Shown piece by piece: positions 1,263 through 26,949 of a stretch of 64,000 bases of DNA. The notes beneath the pieces are model-generated. The model saw nothing but the letters and a program-made list of their open reading frames with translations. It searched no databases and was not told the origin of the DNA. A program made the position numbers and the translations under genes. Numbering within the stretch: the first letter of the stretch is position 1; the number at the start of each line of letters is the position of its first letter. This DNA comes from a virus (lineage: Duplodnaviria > Heunggongvirae > Uroviricota > Caudoviricetes): the IMG/VR virus record IMGVR_UViG_2563366840_000011, positions 12,067 to 76,066 of that record; one strand, written 5' to 3'.

Positions 1263-3838
1263 CGTCCACCTCCGGAGAACAGACCACCATCGCGCATCTG
1301 TGCCTGAATTTCATCACGGGCACCCTTGCGGGCCATGTCATACACTGCCTTCATCATCTGTGGACCTGGCAGACCATTCGTACCGTCGTTCTGAATCACC
1401 ACGTGATTGTTCTGATTAAAATTAATGCCTTCAGCCCGCCGCATCTGCGCCGGACTTCCGGCACCGCCCACATAACCACCTTCCGCATAGCCCCGCATCA
1501 GGCGGTACAGGTTGCCGACACCAATTCGGCTGGTTGCCTCCTTCGTGAAGACAAATTCACCACGGTGAACAATCCCCGCTGGCTCATATTTGCCGCCGGT
1601 TCCCGTAAATCCTCCGGTTGCAAAATGGAATTTCGCCGCAGCGGCCTGAATGGCTGTACCGCCTGATGCGGATGCGCCGCCACCAACAGCCCCGCCAATG
1701 GCGCTACCGATACTCCCGACAATCCCCACCATTGCCTGCTTAAGCAGAATTTCTGTCATCATGGACAGCACGGAACGGGTGAAGCTGCGCCAGTTCTGCT
1801 CACTGCCGGTCAGCATCGCCGCCATATTCTGCGCAATACCATCAAAGGTCTGCGTGGCTGCACTTTTAACCTGCGACATACTGTCCGTGGCGCTCTCTTC
1901 CCACTCACTCCAGCCGGACCTGAGGCCTGCCATCCAGCTCCCGCGAAGCTGGTCTTCAGCCGCCCAGGTCTTTTTCTGCTCTGACATGACGTTATTCAGC
2001 GCCAGCGAATTATCGCCATACTGTTCCTTCAGGCGCTGTTCTGTGGCTTCCCGCGCTGCCTGCCGGTCAGTAAGCCCCCGGTTTTTCGCCTCAATGGCTG
2101 CCCGTTTTGCCCGTTGTTGCTGTGCGAACTTATCCGCCTGCTGCGCCAGCGCGTTCAGGCGCTCCTGATACGTAACCTTGTCGCCAAGTGCAGCCAGCTG
2201 GCGTTTGTACTCCAGCGTCTCATCTTTATGCGCCAGCAGGGATTTCTCCTGTGCGGACAGCTGGCGACGTTGCGCCGCCTCCTCCAGTACCGCGAACTGA
2301 CTCTCCGCCTTCCACAAATCCCGGCGCTGCTGGCTGATTTTCTCATTTGCTCCGGCATGCTTCTCCAGCGTCCGGAGTTCAGCCTGAAGCGTCAGCAGGG
2401 CAGCATGAGCACTGTCTTCCTGACGATCGCCCGCAGACACTTTCACGCCGGACTGTTTCGGCTTTTTCAGCGTCGCTTCATAATCCTTTTTCGCCGCCGC
2501 CATCAGCGTGTTGTAATCTGCCTGCAGGATTTTCCCGTCTTTCAGTGCCTTGTTCAGTTCTTCCTGACGGGCGGTATATTTCTCCAGCGGCGTCTGCAGG
2601 CGTTCGTAAGCCTTCTGCGCCTCTTCGGTATATTTCAGCCGTGATGCCTCAGACTCGGCCCAGTCCTTTGCTGCCATCTCTCTGGCCTTTTCAAGATCGG
2701 CCTGCAACGTGGCGGCTGAAAGCCCAAGTTGCGCATTCGCTCTGTCCTCCCATGCTCCCCGGAGATTGGCAAGAAATGCTGAGGTTTTACCGCGCCGGTG
2801 GCTTCGGCTCTGATACCACTGCCATTTTTTGTCCGCCTCATCAAAAGCCTTTTCTGCTTTCTCCAGCATTCCCTGGGCAGTGTCCGGGCGACCAATATCC
2901 AGCACCGAATCCCACATGGATTTGAATGCCCGTGCTGTCCTGTCTGCCCAGGTCTCCAGCGTGCCCATGTTCTCTTTCAGGCGGCGGGTCTGGTCATCAA
3001 ACCCTTTCGTTGCGGCCTCGTTCGCCGCCTGCAATGCCCCGGCTTCATCTCCGGAACGCTGCAACTGAGCAACATACGCAATCTGCTCCGCCGTCACGTT
3101 ATGGAACTGACGTGCCATCGCTGTCAGTCCCGACGTCGGGTCTGTGGTCAGCTTCCCGAAGGCTTCAGCGACCTTGTCCACCTCCACGCCGGATGCAGAG
3201 GAGAAACGCGCCACACTCTGGCTGATCGCCTCAAACTGCTCACCACCACGCACACCGGCATTCACCAGCGCCGTCAGTGACTCGCTGGTCTGGTTAAACG
3301 TCAGCCCTGCCGCCTGCCCGGCTCTGGACAGGGCCAGAATACGATCTGCCGTCAGTCCCGCCTGATTGCCGGAAAGGACCAGCGTTTTGTTGAAATCGGA
3401 CAGGGTTGAGTTGCCCTGATACCAGGCATACGCCAGCGCACCGGTCGCCACCGCCAGCGAGGTGGCCCCCACCATCGGCAGGGTGATCGCACCGGCAAGC
3501 CCCCTGAACATGGGGATCATCCCGCCGAAGGAGTCCTTAACCTGACCACCCTGTTGCAGCAGGATCAGCCACGGACTTTGCCCGCCTGCAAGCTGCGTGG
3601 CCACGTCGGTGAACTGTGCAGGCAGCATACGCATGGCGGCTTTATACTGCCCGACGGAAATCCCCGCTTTCTGTGCAGCCAGCGCCTGTCGGCTCAGCGA
3701 CTGTTCAACGACTGCCGCTGTTTTTTTCGCATCAGTTTCCGTACCGGAAAAATGACGCCTGACTCTGGCCATCTGCTCGTCAAATCTGGCCGCATCCAGA
3801 CTTAAATCAACGACCAGATCGCCTACCGGTTCAGCCAT
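1259..3838 (-). CDS. H: Tail tape measure protein H
   Basis: 859-aa ORF MAEPVGDLVVDLSLDAARFDEQMARVRRHF... lambda gpH-like, Ala/Gly-rich C-terminus; between T and M. Confidence 0.95.
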   Translation of the reverse strand: MAEPVGDLVVDLSLDAARFDEQMARVRRHFSGTETDAKKTAAVVEQSLSRQALAAQKAGISVGQYKAAMRMLPAQFTDVATQLAGGQSPWLILLQQGGQVKDSFGGMIPMFRGLAGAITLPMVGATSLAVATGALAYAWYQGNSTLSDFNKTLVLSGNQAGLTADRILALSRAGQAAGLTFNQTSESLTALVNAGVRGGEQFEAISQSVARFSSASGVEVDKVAEAFGKLTTDPTSGLTAMARQFHNVTAEQIAYVAQLQRSGDEAGALQAANEAATKGFDDQTRRLKENMGTLETWADRTARAFKSMWDSVLDIGRPDTAQGMLEKAEKAFDEADKKWQWYQSRSHRRGKTSAFLANLRGAWEDRANAQLGLSAATLQADLEKAREMAAKDWAESEASRLKYTEEAQKAYERLQTPLEKYTARQEELNKALKDGKILQADYNTLMAAAKKDYEATLKKPKQSGVKVSAGDRQEDSAHAALLTLQAELRTLEKHAGANEKISQQRRDLWKAESQFAVLEEAAQRRQLSAQEKSLLAHKDETLEYKRQLAALGDKVTYQERLNALAQQADKFAQQQRAKRAAIEAKNRGLTDRQAAREATEQRLKEQYGDNSLALNNVMSEQKKTWAAEDQLRGSWMAGLRSGWSEWEESATDSMSQVKSAATQTFDGIAQNMAAMLTGSEQNWRSFTRSVLSMMTEILLKQAMVGIVGSIGSAIGGAVGGGASASGGTAIQAAAAKFHFATGGFTGTGGKYEPAGIVHRGEFVFTKEATSRIGVGNLYRLMRGYAEGGYVGGAGSPAQMRRAEGINFNQNNHVVIQNDGTNGLPGPQMMKAVYDMARKGARDEIQAQMRDGGLFSGGGR

Positions 3839-9959: not shown

Positions 9960-13640
<3,681 letters not shown>

Positions 13641-16069: not shown

Positions 16070-16274
16070 TCATTTTCACTTTTTTAAATCCAACGACAGA
16101 CGGCTGGCATTTAAGTATTGTGAAATATTATCAAATGTAATCATCATTGATTTACAAAAGATACATTTTGCCCCGAAAGGATTCATGTCAGAAACATCAA
16201 AAGATGATGTTCTATACTGGGAACCATGACAACACGGGCATCTAAAGTGAATATGGTTTGTAATATTGTCTACC

Positions 16275-16487
16275 TCAAAGCGCCACTACATGAACAGCGG
16301 CAGGACCTTTAGGTCCGTTCTCAATACCAAATTCAACTTCCTGATTCTCAGTTAATGTTTTGAAATCGTTGCTCTGAATTGCTGAGAAATGGACAAACAC
16401 ATCTTTGCTGCCATCTTTCGGCGTGATGAAACCAAAACCTTTTTCAGGGTTAAACCATTTCACTAAACCAGTCATTTTGTTAGACAT
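16275..16487 (-). CDS. cspI: Cold shock protein CspI-like
   Basis: 70-aa [73 protein letters not shown]; CspA-family fold, sequence as recalled for CspI; long AT-rich 5' region upstream. Confidence 0.9.
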
Positions 16488-16850
16488 AATTATTACCTTT
16501 TGAAGAAATTAGCCCTTGGGCAGAATGGTCCGAAAAAAAATATCAGAGAGAAAAACCAACAAGGAAATCTCAAGAGGTACAAATAATAAAATTATAACAA
16601 TGACTGCTTCAGATAAATTTGTAACAAACCAGAACACCATTAACGCATGATTAACCACCCATAGCAAGGATTACTTTTGTAAAGAAAAACACAGCAATGA
16701 AAGAATAGCTTTATTTATTAATAATAACGTGTCATTCTGATTAAGACCTTTTATCTTACCCTTAAGATTTCAGGAATTTTGGCTCATGGAAGAGTCCTTT
16801 TTATTTAAATTTTACATTCCGCGATGTAAATGTTCCGATTTAATATTACC

Positions 16851-18880: not shown

Positions 18881-19159
18881 GATTGTGGTGCTTTTTGTGG
18901 GAGTCATCCACTTACGCACTTTGTTTTGCCATGCCAGCAGTTAGCTTCTGCTGTAAAACTATTCATGCAGCAAACCTGCACTTCACCACAATGGTTAGCA
19001 TACTTTTCCTGATTAAGATTTTGCCAAATATGCTAGCCATTGTTTCATGTATTGGACCTCCTTACTTTTTATTAAAGAGATCCAATATTCACTACTCTGT
19101 CCGTATCTCTACTCAGGCATCAGCCTTCTTCGTTATCGTATACAGACGAGCGATGAATT

Positions 19160-19375
19160 TTAATCAGTAATGATGACATTTGCTGCTGCAGGACCTTTAG
19201 CACCACTCTCTATAGAGAAGGTAACCTTTTGACCTTCAAATAAGGTTCGATAATTATCATTCTGAATCGCAGAAAAATGCACAAACACATCTTTACTACC
19301 ATCAACAGGAGAAATAAAGCCGAAACCTTTATCAGCGTTAAACCATTTTACTAAACCAGTCATTTTATTTGACAT
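19160..19375 (-). CDS. cspB: Cold shock protein CspB-like
   Basis: 71-aa [74 protein letters not shown]. Confidence 0.9.
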
Positions 19376-19675
19376 TCTACATTCCTTAACTTGAGCCTTT
19401 CGGCATAAATGGTTTGCATAACAGAAACGACTTCGTACTTAATTGGAGAGACTCAAAGAAGGAATAAGTGAATAACACCTGAAATGAGAACTGCTTTAGT
19501 AAACTACTTCGTATATCGTCTGTTCTTCAAACCGACGCAATCATTAACGCATAGTTGAACATATGAAGCAATGTTTATTTTAGACATCCAGCCATCTTCA
19601 ACCCCATCAAAAAACTATAGCTTTCTTCAGGAACGTGTGTATAGTGCGCCAAGTTATCAGTATTAAGGAATTTTT

Positions 19676-21075: not shown

Positions 21076-22125
21076 TTACGCCAGTACGCCAATTGCCAGC
21101 GCGCGATCGATAAAACGAAATATCAGCTCCAGTTGGGAGCCATACTTATCTTCAAATGCCACTGTATCCGTATGCAGCTCGTTGTGATGCTTTCTGCACA
21201 AAGGCAACACAAAGAGATCATGTGCTTTTGTTCCCATTCCGCCCTGCCCGTGACCAATCAGATGATGCGGATCGTCGGCTGGCATACCGCAGCAAGCACA
21301 CGGCTGTGTCTTAACCCAACGTGTGTATTTCTCCTTAACCCAGCGGCGACGTTTAGGCAGCTTCATGAAAGATTCCGGAGACTCTGGATCAACGGTGATG
21401 CTTACCACCGTCTTTTCCTGTGGTGATTTTTGTTGCTGGTGGGCGTAAGGCAACGGTGCAAGATTTTTTGTGCGTTGTTTCAATATGCTGGTGGCGGTCT
21501 GCTCTCCCGGTACGATGTCGCTTTCGCGGTACACCGAGCAGATTTTTTCCGCTGGTAATCCCAGCGAACGACGCGATACAGCCTCAGGTAGTGCATCCAC
21601 CACCTGATTGCAGACCGCCCACCAGGATAATTCAGCCAAAGATAATTCCCGCTCCTGCGTACCGCTTATTGCGTGACGGATGACGTCAATCACCCATGCT
21701 GTCAGATTTTGTTGAGCAAGCAGCTCCAGTGATTCCGATGTCTGGTCACGCAGTTGGTTGTCGCAGTGCCAGCACAACACCATTGCGCCGGTACCATAAC
21801 GGTGAATGACTGTTTCAGTGTGATGGTAATCGCCATTAGGCCACTGGCAGGATGTAACATGACGTAATAGCCAGTCGGACAATGCGCCAACGCCGCCAGC
21901 AGCACGAATCACCCGTTCGTTACTAAAAAACGGCAGCAATGTTTTGTCTTCCGCCAGCGGCTGGCGAACGGCAGGAACGACTCCGGATGGCAGATTACGC
22001 ATGCTTTTTGGTTCCGGTTCCACCAGCACTCGAGGATTATGAAATATCTGTATGGATTCACGGCCCGGCTTAAGGACCACCAGCCCAAGCTCAGGCACCA
22101 GAACAGGTCTAAGTAATACCCGCAC
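21076..22125 (-). CDS. ydfU: YdfU-like protein with C-terminal HNH-like Cys/His motif
   Basis: GTG at 22125 preceded by GGAGG; C-terminus ...QPCACCGMPADDPHHLIGHGQGGMGTKAHDLFVLPLCRKHHNELH; 349 aa from this start, ORF track extends to 22164. Confidence 0.7.
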   Translation of the reverse strand: MRVLLRPVLVPELGLVVLKPGRESIQIFHNPRVLVEPEPKSMRNLPSGVVPAVRQPLAEDKTLLPFFSNERVIRAAGGVGALSDWLLRHVTSCQWPNGDYHHTETVIHRYGTGAMVLCWHCDNQLRDQTSESLELLAQQNLTAWVIDVIRHAISGTQERELSLAELSWWAVCNQVVDALPEAVSRRSLGLPAEKICSVYRESDIVPGEQTATSILKQRTKNLAPLPYAHQQQKSPQEKTVVSITVDPESPESFMKLPKRRRWVKEKYTRWVKTQPCACCGMPADDPHHLIGHGQGGMGTKAHDLFVLPLCRKHHNELHTDTVAFEDKYGSQLELIFRFIDRALAIGVLA

Positions 22126-22126
22126 G

Positions 22127-22405
22127 TTACCTCCAGATCCGTTGCTGGAAAGTGCGGGACGCACGTGGTGGGCGTTCGGAATAAGGCAGCCTGACAGAGA
22201 TTATCCAGTGCCGATAGTCGAGACTGAGAGCTTTCTTAACCTCGAACCCGCGCCTGCGGTAAGAATGAATCAGCCATTCGGCCTGTTCTGCAGTGCATGG
22301 AGGGTGCTGGAACCATTCAGACTTGAATGCGTGAGAATACCGCCCGTGCGTGCAGGCAAGAACGGGCGAATTATCAGAATTGTAATATTTTGCGTTGCGT
22401 GCCAT
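22127..22405 (-). CDS. Hypothetical protein
   Basis: 92-aa ORF MARNAKYYNSDNSPVLACTHGRYSHAFKSEWFQHPPCTAEQAEWLIHSYRRRGFEV...; stop abuts the ydfU start. Confidence 0.45.
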   Translation of the reverse strand: MARNAKYYNSDNSPVLACTHGRYSHAFKSEWFQHPPCTAEQAEWLIHSYRRRGFEVKKALSLDYRHWIISVRLPYSERPPRASRTFQQRIWR

Positions 22406-22471
22406 CGGTTTTCTCCGGTGGCACGGTGTTACTCAGCGGGAGTTCAGCCCCGCGCAAGATTGTAGATGAGT

Positions 22472-22723
22472 TTATTCTTCTGAAAAAGCAGAAAAGCCAG
22501 CTTTTATTCCGATCTCTTTCAATGCCTGTAATGAAGTGACAAACTCACCTTCGCGCAAGATAAATCCGTCCGTGACCCGAGCATCCACAAAATTAATTAA
22601 CGCAGCCCCATTCTTTCGCAAACACATAATGCGGTAATGACTAACAAGATTTCCATTTTCAACGCACACAGCATAGAGGCCATCTTCACAAAAAATTTTA
22701 CGCAGTTCTTCGATGTTCATCAT
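22472..22723 (-). CDS. rem: Rem-like small protein (assignment by size and position only)
   Basis: 83-aa ORF MMNIEELRKIFCEDGLYAVCVENGNLVSHYRIMCLRKNGAALINFVDARV... between ydfU and hokD. Confidence 0.45.
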   Translation of the reverse strand: MMNIEELRKIFCEDGLYAVCVENGNLVSHYRIMCLRKNGAALINFVDARVTDGFILREGEFVTSLQALKEIGIKAGFSAFSEE

Positions 22724-22835
22724 CAGAATCCTTCCGGATAATTAGCTCTCCCCTTTAAGGGACCATCCCTCTTATCCCTGCGCGCTACTTAAGTATTTTT
22801 GATTCTATTCCGGCACCGTCCAGAACTTCAAACGC

Positions 22836-22871
22836 GTTGAAAATAAAAACAAAAACCCGCCGAAGCGGGTT
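22836..22871 (-). terminator. Rho-independent terminator of the relB-relE-hokD operon
   Basis: Hairpin aacccgc-cgaa-gcgggtt at 22854-22871, followed on the minus strand by TTTTTGTTTTTATTTT. Confidence 0.7.
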
Positions 22872-22939
22872 AAGTGCGGGTGCGTTGAGGATGCCTGCCA
22901 CATCAGAGGTGGCGAGGGATTTCTCCCCCGCCGGGTCTC

Positions 22940-23095
22940 TTACTCCTCAGGTTCGTAAGCTGTGAAGACAGCGACCTCCGTCTGGCCGGTTCGGATTCGT
23001 ACCTCGCAGAGGTCTTTCCTCGTTACCAGTGCCGTCACTATGACGGTTAAACAGATGACGATCAGGGCGATTAACATCGCCTTTTGCTGCTTCAT
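22940..23095 (-). CDS. hokD: Hok-family membrane toxin HokD (RelF)
   Basis: Minus-strand ORF missed by the 60-aa cutoff: MKQQKAMLIALIVICLTVIVTALVTRKDLCEVRIRTGQTEVAVFTAYEPEE (51 aa). Confidence 0.85.
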   Translation of the reverse strand: MKQQKAMLIALIVICLTVIVTALVTRKDLCEVRIRTGQTEVAVFTAYEPEE

Positions 23096-23166
23096 AGCCT
23101 GCTTCTCCTGTCAACGCAAAGCAGAAGTGTCACCTTCGGTGCGAAACAGAGATGTCATGCTTTGGT

Positions 23167-23454
23167 TCAGAGAATGCGTTTGACCGCCTCGCTATATACT
23201 TCCGAGCGTTCTCTTTTCCCAACAGAAATCACGAAAACGACAACTTTCTCGTCTATAACCTGGTATACAAGGCGATAGCCTGAAGACCGGAGCTTAATCT
23301 TGTAACAATCAGGCATACCACGGAGCTTGTTTGCTTCAATCCGGGGTGACTCAAGTACTTCAACCAGCTTCTTTTTCAACTGTTCACGTACCGTCGAGCC
23401 CAGCTTTCGCCATTCCTTTAGTGCCCGCTCGTCAAAATCCAGAAAATACGCCAT
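23167..23454 (-). CDS. relE: RelE mRNA interferase toxin
   Basis: 95-aa ORF MAYFLDFDERALKEWRKLGSTVREQLKKKLVEVLESPRIEANKLRGMPDCYKIKLRSSGYRLVYQVIDEKVVVFVISVGKRE... Confidence 0.93.
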   Translation of the reverse strand: MAYFLDFDERALKEWRKLGSTVREQLKKKLVEVLESPRIEANKLRGMPDCYKIKLRSSGYRLVYQVIDEKVVVFVISVGKRERSEVYSEAVKRIL

Positions 23455-23693
23455 CAGAGTTCATCCAGCGTCACACGTACTGGCTTAGGATTACGAAGCC
23501 GTTCTTTCACTATCTCCACAAGTTCAGCATCTTCATCACTCAGGAGTGTCTGTTTGAACGGCAAGCGTTCATTGTCAGCGATATACTCGAGCATGAGACG
23601 AAGCGCTTCAGAAGGAGTTACACCCATTTTTTCAAGCGCGGCGTAAGAACGCGCTTTAAGTTCATCGTCAATACGCAGGTTAATGCTACCCAT
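23454..23693 (-). CDS. relB: RelB antitoxin
   Basis: 79-aa ORF MGSINLRIDDELKARSYAALEKMGVTPSEALRLMLEYIADNERLPFKQTLLSDEDAELVEIVKERLRNPKPVRVTLDEL; one-base overlap with relE. Confidence 0.93.
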   Translation of the reverse strand: MGSINLRIDDELKARSYAALEKMGVTPSEALRLMLEYIADNERLPFKQTLLSDEDAELVEIVKERLRNPKPVRVTLDEL

Positions 23694-23699
23694 GTCTTA

Positions 23700-23735
23700 C
23701 ACCTCTTGTAATTACAAATGTCATTACAAGTATCG
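23700..23735 (-). promoter_or_regulatory. relBE promoter/operator (relO-like TTGTAAT repeats)
   Basis: Minus strand reads CTTGTAATGACATTTGTAATTACAAGAGGTGTAAGAC immediately before the relB ATG. Confidence 0.75.
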
Positions 23736-24023
23736 CACTACAACATGCTTAGGGCAAGTCACGAAGGAAGTCAGAAAGTAGTCGTAAGAACGGTGATCAC
23801 TGTCCGCTTTGTGCCAGGAGCAGCCATTGCTAAGTCCATCCTGTATTGTGCAGGTCAGCTCGTTTTTAAAGAGTCCGGCCATCATCTTACTGGTACAGAC
23901 ACCATATACTTTGTGACGGTCAGGCTACATATGCACAACTCAACTTATTCATCTATTTTTTGCTTTAGCATGTCAGTGTTGCTTTCTCGTCGGCGGGTGA
24001 GCGGTGACCTGACCTGTCGATAA
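23718..24023 (+). CDS. ydfV: YdfV-like hypothetical ORF (possibly non-coding)
   Basis: 101-aa ORF between relB and flxA; no recognisable motif; assignment by size and position only. Confidence 0.3.
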   Translation: MSLQVSHYNMLRASHEGSQKVVVRTVITVRFVPGAAIAKSILYCAGQLVFKESGHHLTGTDTIYFVTVRLHMHNSTYSSIFCFSMSVLLSRRRVSGDLTCR

Positions 24024-24225
24024 AGGAACGTAACACGTTTTATGCAACACCCGCATGCGGCAGAAAATTATTGCCGAACGTTTACCCCTGTCAACAAGCT
24101 TTACTTTCTGAGGCGCGCCAGCCCGCGAGGAAAACAATCTGAACATCAAACAATTAATGACACAAGAAATACGATTAAAGATTTTTTTGTGCATGCCGAT
24201 AGTGCTTTTTTAAAAGGAGAAATCT

Positions 24226-24558
24226 ATGTCTGTCACAATTCAGGGAAATACCTCAACCGTTATTTCAAACAACTCCGCCCCGGAAGGAACATCAGAAATA
24301 GCCAAAATCACAAGACAAATTCAGGTGCTGACTGAAAAGCTTGGGAAAATCTCATCGGAAGAGGGGATGACGACACAGCAGAAAAAAGAAATGGCTGCAT
24401 TGGTACAGAAGCAAATTGAAAGCCTCTGGGCTCAACTGGAGCAGTTGTTAAGGCAGCAGGCAGAGAAAAAGAATGAAGACGCGACAGTTCAGCCTGATAA
24501 AAAAGAAGAGAAAAAAGACGATACAAATACCGCTGGCACCATTGATATTTACGTCTAA
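24226..24558 (+). CDS. flxA: FlxA-like protein
   Basis: 110-aa ORF MSVTIQGNTSTVISNNSAPEGTSEIAKITRQIQVLTEKLGKISSEEGMTTQQKKEMAALVQKQIESLWAQLEQLLRQQAEKKNE... Confidence 0.85.
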   Translation: MSVTIQGNTSTVISNNSAPEGTSEIAKITRQIQVLTEKLGKISSEEGMTTQQKKEMAALVQKQIESLWAQLEQLLRQQAEKKNEDATVQPDKKEEKKDDTNTAGTIDIYV

Positions 24559-24572
24559 GTGACAGCCGTATT

Positions 24573-24599
24573 GTGGCCCTCATCGGGCCACTTTTCGCC
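24573..24599 (+). terminator. Rho-independent terminator downstream of flxA
   Basis: Hairpin gtggccc-tcatc-gggccac at 24573-24591, followed by TTTTCGCC. Confidence 0.65.
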
Positions 24600-24994
24600 A
24601 TCAGCCTTTTCTTTAAAGACATATTATCTTTGTATCATTTCTGATAGTTAACATTACAAGATATAAGTAATGGACGCACTCCCAATTAGTCTATTTAAAT
24701 CGCCACGAGTTTAACTGACAACCCATGATCAATTATGAATTGCAACTATTTCTGTAGTCACTTTTGTGGGGACAGTCCACAAAACTGCCAACTTCCGCTT
24801 CTTGCTCTTAGCGGACATTAGCATAGGCTATTTACCATAACGCCTCATTACGCGCACCGCCCAGACTGACTCAGCGCGTTTCTGGCATATCCCCGGTAAA
24901 ACAAGTAACAAACCACCCGAAAATGAACACCAGAAACGCGACTTAAGAATCTACCCTATGAATGGATATGCACTCAACCGAATCGATCTTGGTT

Positions 24995-26308
24995 TCAATC
25001 TTTTTTATCGGGATCAGGCTTCTTTTTAGGTAACTTCGGGGGCTTAACTTGCTGATGACTTTGCGTTCGGCGCGTAAGCCAGGGATGGTCAGCTTTAGGT
25101 TTAACATAGTATTTTGAGCGTAAATCAATACGGGCATTATCCACTCGTTCATGGACACTCTTTTCATCATCCAGTGGTATAGGCTCCGGGCCATCAACAT
25201 ACTTTTCCCAGCCCAGCGCTTTCCCGTCATACAGAACGTTAATTTCACCGTCAAAGTTCTCGCATACAGTAACAACCGAATGCCTAAGTCGATATCCCCG
25301 GCCCTCACTGCGTACCTGAAACGCACTGCTTTTGTACTGGAAAGTGAGATTTTTAGACAGAACGCGCTTCGCCTGTAGGCTGAAGATATAACCCAGTTCC
25401 TCTTCAGAATGGTGCACATCAAGATGAGCATTATCAGTAGTACGAGGCGACGTAGCGAACCGGTTGTTATAGGCTTCAATAAAGGTCGGCAACCATGCAT
25501 TTGCTGTTTCAATATCACTGATATTCTGAAGCCGCATTTCTTTGACCAGCCTGTCCTGTAGTGTCTGATTGGCGCGCTCTACCCGCCCTTTTGCCTGCGG
25601 GCTGTTGGCATGGATTGGCTCGATGCCCAGTGTCTTTATCGCACGAGTGAACTGGGTCAGCTCACCTTCCCGCTCTGGGTTATTTACCCTGAATATACTG
25701 TGTCTATCAGAGTAGAGAGCGAGCGGTACGCCATGATCATTAAGGTAACCCCGGAGGGTTTCCATGTAAGCCCGGGTTGTTTCAGCAGGCACAAAACGCA
25801 ACGCCATCAACGCACTGGTGGCATCATCAATGAAAACGATCAGTGTACATCTGGGGCCTCGATTTTCAAACCAGTCATGAGGTGAGCCATCAATCTGGAT
25901 CAGTTCACCGTAAGATGGTCGTCGCATGCGGCGTTGATATATACGGGCAATTTTACGACGGCGTTCACGCCATAACCCCTCTTCTATCATCCACTTTCTG
26001 AGAGTTTCAACGGATAAAGATAAACCGTGTATCTCGCGCAATTTTTCGCACGCAAACGTAGGTCCAAAATCAGCGTAACGGCCTTTGAGGAGTGAAATTA
26101 CTGTTGCTCTGAATTCAGTAGAAAAGGAATTATTAGGACGCTTTCCACGTCGGTGGGAAACCAGACCAGAAGGCCCTTCATTTCTATACCGTTGCACCAG
26201 ACGTTTAACCTGCCGAATAGAAATGCCAATGCGTGCCGCAGCTTGTTCCTGAATAATCTGAAGTCGATGGAGTTCCTTATGACTCATCGTAACAGTCTCT
26301 TTGATCAT
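24995..26308 (-). CDS. DDE (integrase-core type) transposase of an unclassified IS element
   Basis: 437-aa ORF with N-terminal HTH-like region, then IQIDGSPHDWF..., LYSDRHSIF..., ANSPQAKGRVERANQTLQ (DDE/rve-like); element ends not resolved. Confidence 0.65.
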   Translation of the reverse strand: MIKETVTMSHKELHRLQIIQEQAAARIGISIRQVKRLVQRYRNEGPSGLVSHRRGKRPNNSFSTEFRATVISLLKGRYADFGPTFACEKLREIHGLSLSVETLRKWMIEEGLWRERRRKIARIYQRRMRRPSYGELIQIDGSPHDWFENRGPRCTLIVFIDDATSALMALRFVPAETTRAYMETLRGYLNDHGVPLALYSDRHSIFRVNNPEREGELTQFTRAIKTLGIEPIHANSPQAKGRVERANQTLQDRLVKEMRLQNISDIETANAWLPTFIEAYNNRFATSPRTTDNAHLDVHHSEEELGYIFSLQAKRVLSKNLTFQYKSSAFQVRSEGRGYRLRHSVVTVCENFDGEINVLYDGKALGWEKYVDGPEPIPLDDEKSVHERVDNARIDLRSKYYVKPKADHPWLTRRTQSHQQVKPPKLPKKKPDPDKKD

Positions 26309-26949
26309 GAAAAATCCCCCAGAGAATTGTCTGGGGACATTTTAGAATGGTTCAAAGGGGACATTACAGCTTGGTGTTAACAATAGCCTGCTTCTCCGTG
26401 CCTTTCGGCACGTAAGAGGCTAACCTACATGTGTCTAGCATGAAATTGGCCTCAGATTAATGTTAAGCGTCTTGCAGGACGCGTAATGTTAACTGGGGCT
26501 TTTCTCTATCTGCCGTTGGTGTCCATGCCCGAGGCAGATAGCCTCAAGCACCCGCAGTCATTCTACTTAACTAAGATTTCCCCGCAAACCGTTTTTGTCC
26601 AGCACAGTAAATATCCAACTAAACCAATGGAGTTCGCTGTATTTACCGCCAGTATTCAATGCACATGACCGCCATGAACACCCCTAAAAAAAGGGCATTT
26701 ATATATCCAAATATTAATATCAAAACATCAACTTTTTCCATATACCTTGCTGTGAAGATGATGGGCATACATGATGCGAACAACCAGAACGCAACAAACA
26801 AAAACTGCAATGCGTTTTTCATTATTCCTCCTACAATCAATGTGCAATTACATTTAAACACACCTCAATTTGGCCGGACATATAAATATCTAAACCAGAA
26901 AAAATCACTTACATAGCGTTACAAACTCTTTAGTCTAAAGGTTCATCGT

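Follow-up and report, generated by a model that had tools for sequence, protein, structure and literature searches.

Here we report that hokD, the membrane-toxin gene at the distal end of a relB-relE-hokD (relBEF) operon, has very probably been cut off from its Sok antisense-RNA control by an ISEsa1-type transposon and is instead read through from the relBE promoter, PrelBE. The operon occupies positions 22844-23757 (minus strand) of a 64,000-nt stretch of viral DNA (IMG/VR record IMGVR_UViG_2563366840_000011, positions 12,067 to 76,066; hereafter the window) and belongs to a Qin-type lambdoid prophage of Escherichia coli. We attribute its construction to transposition because three other hok-family loci, all on plasmids, hold an element of this kind at the corresponding site, and each insertion is flanked by a 15-16-bp duplication of its own. 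The operon itself is already known and is among the founding type II toxin-antitoxin loci, and the transposon mechanism, together with the apparent targeting of hok genes, may be the only new part of this account. Among the papers searched, none connected ISEsa1 with either relE or hok; part of the account may already be given by Pedersen & Gerdes 1999 or Ramisetty & Santhosh 2016.

The hokD gene retains the 3' part of a hok/mok/sok locus, namely its Shine-Dalgarno sequence, open reading frame (ORF), fbi element and terminator. Downstream of position 23109, the sequence shares 99.4% identity with the phage mEp460 hok locus, through hokD, the 3' untranslated region (UTR) and the terminator and into rem, and a BLAST comparison with phages placed the start of similarity to intact hok/sok loci at that same position, 14 nt before the hokD ATG. 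Upstream of 23109 there is no match to intact hok loci: missing are the promoter of hok, the tac element, the start of mok, the Sok target and the sok gene together with its -10 box, and the junction replaces the sok -35 box beside hokD (CTCCTTGCCT becoming CTCCTGTCAA). The preliminary description of this DNA, made from the sequence alone, had left undecided whether hokD is regulated or silent and had proposed a search of its 5' region for mok/sok elements and fold-back structures. By homology, neither mok nor sok is present 5' of hokD, and the Rfam sok model (RF01794) gave no match in 22000-24500 at E<=10, as against 112-114 bits for the intact hokD-type loci of P1-like phage-plasmids, 106 bits for IncFII hok/sok and 115 bits for mEp460, which served as positive controls. 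The mok frame upstream of hokD contains a TGA five codons upstream, and its sole start is a TTG lacking a Shine-Dalgarno sequence. As to fold-back structures, fbi is kept, its tac partner is absent from the operon, where the sole match to the fbi complement is fbi itself, and pairing between fbi and the spacer preceding hokD is no better than in shuffled sequences, as detailed below. Because hokD has neither a promoter nor any mok, sok or tac element in cis, we infer that it stands outside Sok-type control and that its expression is set by read-through transcription under the control of RelB/RelE instead of by an antisense RNA.

The missing 5' half of the locus survives elsewhere in the window. 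A whole-window Rfam scan placed sok (RF01794) at 26382-26553 on the minus strand with 104.1 bits, against a gathering score of 59, in an orphan half that lies 3.3 kb from hokD. From the hok promoter to ...GGAGAAGCAGGCTAT, this half is near-identical to the mEp460 leader until GGCTAT, where it is interrupted by TGTTAACACCAAGCTGTAATGTCCCC, the cut falling exactly at the AT of the hok ATG. The 15-mer GGAGAAGCAGGCTAT occurs in exactly two copies in the window, one at each junction of the segment that separates the two halves (...TTTGCGTTGACA and TGTTAACACC...). Relative to mEp460, the orphan half carries one change, GGCAAGGAG to GGCACGGAG, which converts the -35 box of sok from TTGCCT to GTGCCT and also modifies the context of the hok Shine-Dalgarno sequence.

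Judged from its transposase, its TGT ends and its 15-bp duplication, the intervening segment is built like an element of the IS1202 family, with flxA, ydfV and relBE as its cargo. The IS1202 family is characterized by inverted repeats starting with TGT and by transposases of 400-500 aa, and its ISTde1 subgroup duplicates 15-17 bp of target (PMC10132070). The RefSeq name of the transposase is 'IS1202-like element ISEsa1 family transposase'. The element begins with TGTTAAC... and ends with ...GTTGACA, both ends being inverted repeats that start with TGT, and beyond the first T, which they share, the end sequences TGTTAACACCAAGCTGTAATGTCCCCTT and TGTCAACGCAAAGCAGAAGTGTCACCTT agree in 20 of 27 bases, a score reached by only 9 of 3000 shuffles. 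The relBE pair sits just inside the right end, reading outwards. At the other end, the transposase gene now lies downstream of the hok promoter and leader, which read into it codirectionally in each of the four insertions, so that Sok or mok might influence transposase expression.

E. coli K-12 has lost the left inverted repeat, the sok half and nearly the whole transposase gene, of which only the final few dozen bases are still in place, whereas the full arrangement is present in phage PhiR42_1 (from ECOR13), orphan half included. This loss of the left part of the element presumably made its origin difficult to recognize from K-12 alone.

The three further insertions are in a hok-family locus of an Enterobacter IncF plasmid (L090; 15-bp duplication GGAGAAGAAGGCCAT), in the pnd locus beside trbA of a Salmonella IncI plasmid (L091; 15-bp duplication TGGAGGGGCTATGAT) and in the Klebsiella pneumoniae plasmid pKpCol17ndm (L170; 16-bp duplication GGAGAAAAAGGCTATG). 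The flxA and ydfV genes travel with the element on the IncF and IncI plasmids; the 5,938-bp element of pKpCol17ndm carries genes for cytochrome b and a CDF transporter and an ISVsa5 insertion instead. Thus, four hok-family loci, that of Qin included, are interrupted at one common position by elements of like orientation. Each locus shows a duplication of 15-16 bp of its own sequence, and every insertion falls immediately 3' of GCCGNAAGGCA, the conserved hairpin of the hok leader. Both ends of the element together with the Qin-type duplication were found in 31 IMG/VR prophage contigs. In a survey of RelE across species representatives, the 58-nt stretch that follows relE was conserved in more than 30 species and ended sharply at GTTGACA before more than 10 unrelated contexts; a hok ORF directly followed this stretch in 13 of about 35 close RelE loci, with at least six Hok alleles among those 13. 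The transposon appears to choose hok-family loci, and we think it likely that relBE is a fixed end-cargo of an ISEsa1-type transposon that inserts in one orientation 3' of the hok leader hairpin, rewiring hok toxins.

It is highly improbable that the relBE-hok junction arose by illegitimate or homologous recombination and deletion, with the 15-mer as a recombination scar. A 'major genetic rearrangement' is what the literature describes, and recombination between copies does occur: in locus L167, a pnd-type left flank is joined to a Qin-type right flank, and in locus L020 (at about 1855-1920) a hok leader in inverted orientation is joined to the end beside relE, precisely where the duplication would begin or end. 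Two more loci (L129 and L121) have deletions that run from the right end into hokD, and all four are evidence of recombination between element copies or their flanks. Against recombination as the origin of the junction stand the four hok alleles, each with a perfect 15-16-bp duplication of its own, at the same position and orientation and with the same TGT inverted ends, as well as the duplication length and ends, which are the signature of an IS1202-family subgroup.

Several observations count against the transposon account. ISEsa1 has been catalogued as an element of 1609 bp with no detectable duplication and placed in a small, separate group without target-site duplication, 'no TSD' (PMC10132070), and standalone 1.6-kb copies of it exist (for example, L168). 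Many relBE arms have no transposase arm nearby, and the sole copy of the element found outside a hok locus (L123) has flanks that share a 6-bp repeat (CGCCTT), not 15-16 bp. Transposition is argued here from comparative sequence. Given the standalone 1.6-kb copies, the end beside relE may be either the true right end or a surrogate second end; a functional right end beyond relE would explain why ISEsa1 was catalogued without a target duplication.

The transposase-free arms also suggest another scheme, in which relBE moves alone as a non-autonomous cassette of about 720 bp with short inverted repeats, the link with ISEsa1 in Qin being secondary. In many contexts that lack a transposase, the relBE arm indeed has a sharp start near (GTCCGCTYC)TGGCACAAAGCGGAC and a fixed end at GTTGACA, and its left edge CAAAGCGGACAGTGATCACC aligns with the reverse-complemented right edge CAAAGCAGA-AGTG-TCACC, an alignment equalled by 2 of 2000 shuffles. 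We nevertheless regard such a cassette as unlikely: no target duplications were seen around the short unit, its left edge does not begin with TGT and varies between contexts, and IncHI plasmids that seemingly lack the insertion sequence (IS) carry it 4 kb upstream, with a 16-bp duplication. Moreover, AATGTCCGCT...AAGCGGA is also found at the end of the standalone 1.6-kb IS, and thus the 'left edge' of the cassette may be shared internal IS sequence. In the window, this hairpin motif, AATGTCCGCT-N9-AAGCGGA (24794-24818, minus strand), lies at the point where standalone ISEsa1 copies end, and a related mutated motif, AATGGCTGCT...AAGCGGAC (about 23821-23845, minus strand), is found where the conserved relBE arm has its left edge. 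Between these two motif copies lie flxA and ydfV, which suggests cargo exchange at the motif.

The identity of the operon is secured by comparison with E. coli K-12 MG1655, in which the stretch corresponding to 22700-23900 is 100% identical over its full length (1201 bp) and is annotated as rem, hokD, relE, relB and ydfV within the Qin prophage. The match reflects homology to the characterized locus and not chance. Many other strains match likewise, and at least 80% of the stretch is present in 1162 of 5426 complete E. coli genomes. RelB is 100% identical to its K-12 counterpart. The gene order is that of RelBE systems, with the ribbon-helix-helix (RHH) antitoxin gene relB first and the toxin gene directly downstream, the relB stop and relE start overlapping as ATGA at 23454; relE and hokD are separated by a gap of 71 nt. 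The preliminary description of a prophage-borne relB-relE-hokD operon is therefore borne out, by the identity to K-12 Qin and by Pfam matches for all three proteins. It was right as well about an intact relO operator, whose half-sites are letter-identical to those mapped experimentally, and about a strong terminator, which has a 7-bp GC-rich stem and a T run and is the native terminator of the hok locus, with an identical sequence in phage mEp460. Alignment to K-12 and other strains revealed neither a frameshift nor promoter loss in the operon, the two defects that the description had named as grounds for rejecting it. The span it gave, 22836-23735, takes in the genes, relO and the terminator, but the -35 box lies 17-22 nt beyond its right end; the severed sok/mok half and the transposon had escaped notice in it. 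The features of the locus are collected in the table.

Features of the relBE-hokD locus and of the transposon that separates the two halves of hok/sok (window coordinates)
Feature	Position	Strand	Description
Terminator	22844-22871	-	7-bp GC-rich stem at 22854-22871 (AACCCGC-TTCG-GCGGGTT), then T run to 22844
fbi element ATCCTCAACGCACCC	22878-22892	-	In hok 3' UTR; complementary to tac GGGTGCTTGAGG of intact relatives
hokD (relF)	22940-23095	-	51 aa; Hok-family membrane toxin; Pfam HOK_GEF PF01848, 83 bits, E=1e-23
TACG motif, Tyr47	22954-22957	-	TadA adenosine-to-inosine (A-to-I) editing site (A at 22956; Tyr to Cys)
Right target duplication GGAGAAGCAGGCTAT	23094-23108	-	15 bp; holds hokD Shine-Dalgarno sequence and AT of start codon
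relE-hokD spacer	23109-23166	-	58 nt; part of the relBE arm of the transposon
Right inverted repeat	23109-23135	-	Last ~27 nt of spacer, ...GCGTTGACA
IS1202-family (ISEsa1-type) transposon	23109-26382	-	3,274 bp: left inverted repeat, transposase, flxA, ydfV, relBE, right inverted repeat
relE	23167-23454	-	95 aa; ribosome-dependent mRNA interferase; Pfam ParE_toxin PF05016, 51 bits, E=2e-13
relB	23454-23693	-	79 aa; RHH antitoxin and autorepressor; Pfam RelB PF04221, 112 bits, E=1e-32, residues 1-79
relO operator	23706-23729	-	24 bp; two 12-bp half-sites, TTGTAATGACAT and TTGTAATTACAA
Cargo gene ydfV	23718-24023	+	ORF and K-12 annotation
PrelBE -10 hexamer GATACT	23729-23734	-	Shares one base with relO (its first base)
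PrelBE -35 hexamer TTGCCC	23752-23757	-	Read from sequence; 17-nt spacer to -10
Cargo gene flxA	24226-24558	+	ORF and K-12 annotation
Transposase	24995-26308	-	437 aa; NCBIfam ISNCY_2 NF033594, 456 bits against a cutoff of 250
Left inverted repeat	26356-26382	-	Transposase-proximal end of the transposon
Left target duplication GGAGAAGCAGGCTAT	26383-26397	-	15 bp, perfect
Orphan hok/sok 5' half	26383-26575	-	hok promoter, tac, mok start, Sok target, sok gene

The sequence of PrelBE is that of the K-12 promoter studied in PMC2812701, a sigma-70 promoter overlapped by relO, whose half-sites were defined by scanning mutagenesis and hydroxyl-radical footprinting. Written as TTGTAATGACATTTGTAATTACAA, the operator in the window comprises four (A/T)TGT(A/C)A hexads overlapping the promoter. 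In K-12, RelB dimers bind the four hexads and repress transcription, and RelE acts as a co-repressor under conditional cooperativity, the RelB:RelE ratio setting the level of repression (PMC2812701); the antitoxin neutralizes the toxin, and RelB is turned over in a Lon-dependent manner (PMC2812701, PMC3598666). Northern blots with relB, relE and relF probes showed a single full-length mRNA, which is induced by starvation and by several toxins, the induction being gone upon deletion of PrelBEF (PMC3598666). The relBE unit has been described as horizontally acquired and terminator-less, hence the co-transcription of hokD, and neither a terminator nor a promoter has been reported between relE and hokD (PMC5120126). 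According to Ramisetty and co-workers, plasmid-acquired relBE integrated into an ancestral hokD locus (PMC6379469).

Combining these data with the arrangement in the window, we propose the following course of events. The transposon would insert between the hok leader hairpin and the hok start codon, duplicating 15 bp, and would thereby sever the hok promoter, tac, mok start, Sok target and sok gene from hokD. With relBE lying just inside the right end, its terminator-less transcript runs, as experiments on the identical K-12 sequence have shown, through hokD to the hok terminator. Loss of RelB in amino-acid starvation or upon toxin activation derepresses PrelBE, as likewise shown for K-12, and HokD output would then follow relBE transcription rather than Sok decay.

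Continued antisense control of hokD, exerted from an unrecognized promoter in cis or in trans by the orphan sok at 26.4 kb or by another chromosomal sok, seems very unlikely. An apparently complete sok region does survive in the window. However, the transcript of relBE-hokD lacks the region that Sok targets: nothing but the 15-bp duplication is common to the two halves, and this repeat, being located upstream of the -35 box of sok, is outside the Sok RNA. The sok -35 box beside hokD is destroyed by the change noted above, and K-12 lacks the orphan half entirely. A simple promoter scan found no plus-strand, antisense promoter-like site in 22400-24300, a result that carries little weight because the scan missed PrelBE itself and would also miss the known sub-consensus sok promoter.

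A more serious alternative, though one that we hold to be less probable than not, is that hokD is a dead relic, transcribed as a passenger of the relBE mRNA and essentially untranslated or harmless without editing, so that the operon amounts to a plain relBE module. Reviews citing Pedersen & Gerdes 1999 list hokD as inactivated, its canonical components having been lost in the rearrangement mentioned above; canonical hok translation needs translation of mok, whose start is gone here; and K-12 tolerates strong induction of relBEF (PMC3598666). The hokD mRNA is transcribed and has been reported to be A-to-I edited at the conserved TACG site, converting Tyr47 to Cys (PMC5630033, PMC12214031), and the Cys47 edit is found in merely about 6% of transcripts; full HokD toxicity may depend also on this low-level editing. 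On the other hand, the ORF, the Shine-Dalgarno sequence (GGAG at 23105-23108) and its 9-nt spacing have been kept intact, with no difference among over 1000 genomes, and at least six different hok alleles stand open behind the same relBE arm in different genera. In addition, expression of the HokD coding sequence has a toxic effect (bioRxiv 2025.08.07.668861), and the relF part is the most abundant stable mRNA fragment after toxin cleavage (PMC3598666).

Two candidate devices for coupling or controlling hokD translation in its new setting were considered and dropped. Beside the Shine-Dalgarno sequence of hokD, the spacer contains UGCGUUGA, which shows perfect complementarity with the core of fbi over 8 bp and is paired with it in the minimum-free-energy fold, as a rebuilt fold-back would be; the energy of the spacer-3' UTR duplex was -27.1, compared with -31.4 +/- 4.3 for dinucleotide shuffles, 856 of 1000 of which were as good. 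For other hok alleles behind the same spacer, the fold-back energy was likewise no better than in shuffles. A 15-codon upstream ORF in the spacer (ATGACA...CGTTGA, 23112-23159), which ends at the hokD Shine-Dalgarno sequence, is unsupported as a relE-hokD coupler: it is not conserved, its ATG being AGG in diverged copies of the arm, its differences from the spacer remnant of a Klebsiella plasmid (L009) are all non-synonymous, and its local fold has a z-score of -0.5.

Two further interpretations of the boundary upstream of hokD were set aside. An integron attC site as a cassette boundary was rejected, since the sequences diverge after GTTGACA and not within G/TT, and the core is unlike GTTRRRY. 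To describe the locus merely as foreign DNA beginning 14 nt upstream of the ATG is incomplete, as the spacer belongs to the transposon arm, a remnant of which persists in L009. In that IncFII/IncR Klebsiella plasmid (1501-1722), an intact hok ORF is immediately preceded by the last 62 nt of the relBE arm, with 84% identity; the place of relBE is taken by a divergent pair of the GNAT/RHH type, and Rfam sok gave no match in this locus.

Compared with relBEF of K-12 Qin, the promoter, relO, relB, relE, spacer, hokD and terminator are identical and the neighbors rem, ydfV and flxA are the same, whereas the prophage in the window, like PhiR42_1, keeps a complete transposase arm and the orphan 5' half of hok/sok. 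With the hok/mok/sok loci, such as parB of plasmid R1, hokW-sokW of Stx phages and the mEp460 locus, it shares the Hok ORF, the Shine-Dalgarno sequence, the fbi-containing 3' UTR and the terminator, and with mEp460 also the position of hok upstream of rem. It differs from them in that the promoter, tac, mok start, Sok target and sok gene are displaced from hokD and transcription comes from PrelBE.

The transposon resembles the ISTde1 subgroup of the IS1202 family in its 437-aa DDE transposase, inverted repeats starting with TGT and 15-16-bp duplications. Unlike members of that subgroup (1.3-2.0 kb), it measures 3,274-5,938 bp and has cargo, always including relBE and comprising in addition either flxA and ydfV or the cytochrome b and CDF transporter genes. 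With such passengers it would be classed as a transporter IS or a transposon; a few members of the IS1202 family with passengers are known. Its targets are the regions between the Shine-Dalgarno sequence and the start codon of hok-family genes. Members of the ISAjo2/ISAba32 subgroup of the same family, which target pdif/dif sites, likewise insert in a specific orientation at a fixed distance from a short feature (PMC10132070), but the feature here is the hok leader hairpin GCCGNAAGGCA and not a XerC/D site, and the duplication is of 15-16 rather than 5-6 bp.

These results replace the textbook notion of a hokD gene 'inactivated by major rearrangement' with a defined event, marked by transposon ends, a 15-bp duplication and a severed sok half that is still present in wild Qin-type prophages. 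They suggest a transposon family that repeatedly rewires the hok killer genes of plasmids and phages from RNA-antitoxin control to transcription controlled by a protein antitoxin. If so, the interpretation of relBEF deletion strains and of the stability modules of IncF, IncI and IncH plasmids would be affected, and the ISfinder definition of ISEsa1 would need revision.

Additional observations concern relatives of the two toxins. The P1-like phage-plasmids L002 and L003 (IncY and related, about 94-96 kb) carry an intact hok/sok locus at 2332-2656, downstream of kilA/repL, and their Hok shares 94-96% identity with HokD. The RelE protein was also encountered in unrelated phyla, with 100% identity in a 535-bp scaffold of Streptomyces sp. 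E11-3 (L022) and 93% in Chryseobacterium (L039). The very short Streptomyces contig also holds the start of an IncHI2-type hok, and both relE occurrences look like contamination rather than transfer.

The status of ydfV as a real gene is doubtful. Its ORF begins within relO, lies antisense to the region of the relBE promoter, matches no Pfam family, and is replaced by other genes in the IncH variant of the element.

The hok 3' UTR and terminator (22850-22931, minus strand; 3179-3260 in mEp460) gave a sub-threshold match to Rfam isrK, with 25 bits against a gathering score of 50. IsrK is a prophage-borne small RNA of Salmonella. This match, like sub-threshold matches to rsmX and P9 on the hok 3' UTR, probably reflects terminator or hairpin resemblance, also found in mEp460. 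Elsewhere in the window, Rfam identified two cspA-type thermoregulator 5' UTRs (RF01766) on the minus strand, at 16248-16633 and 19144-19536 (113 and 159 bits), which belong to prophage cold-shock genes (cspB/cspF region), as in K-12 Qin.

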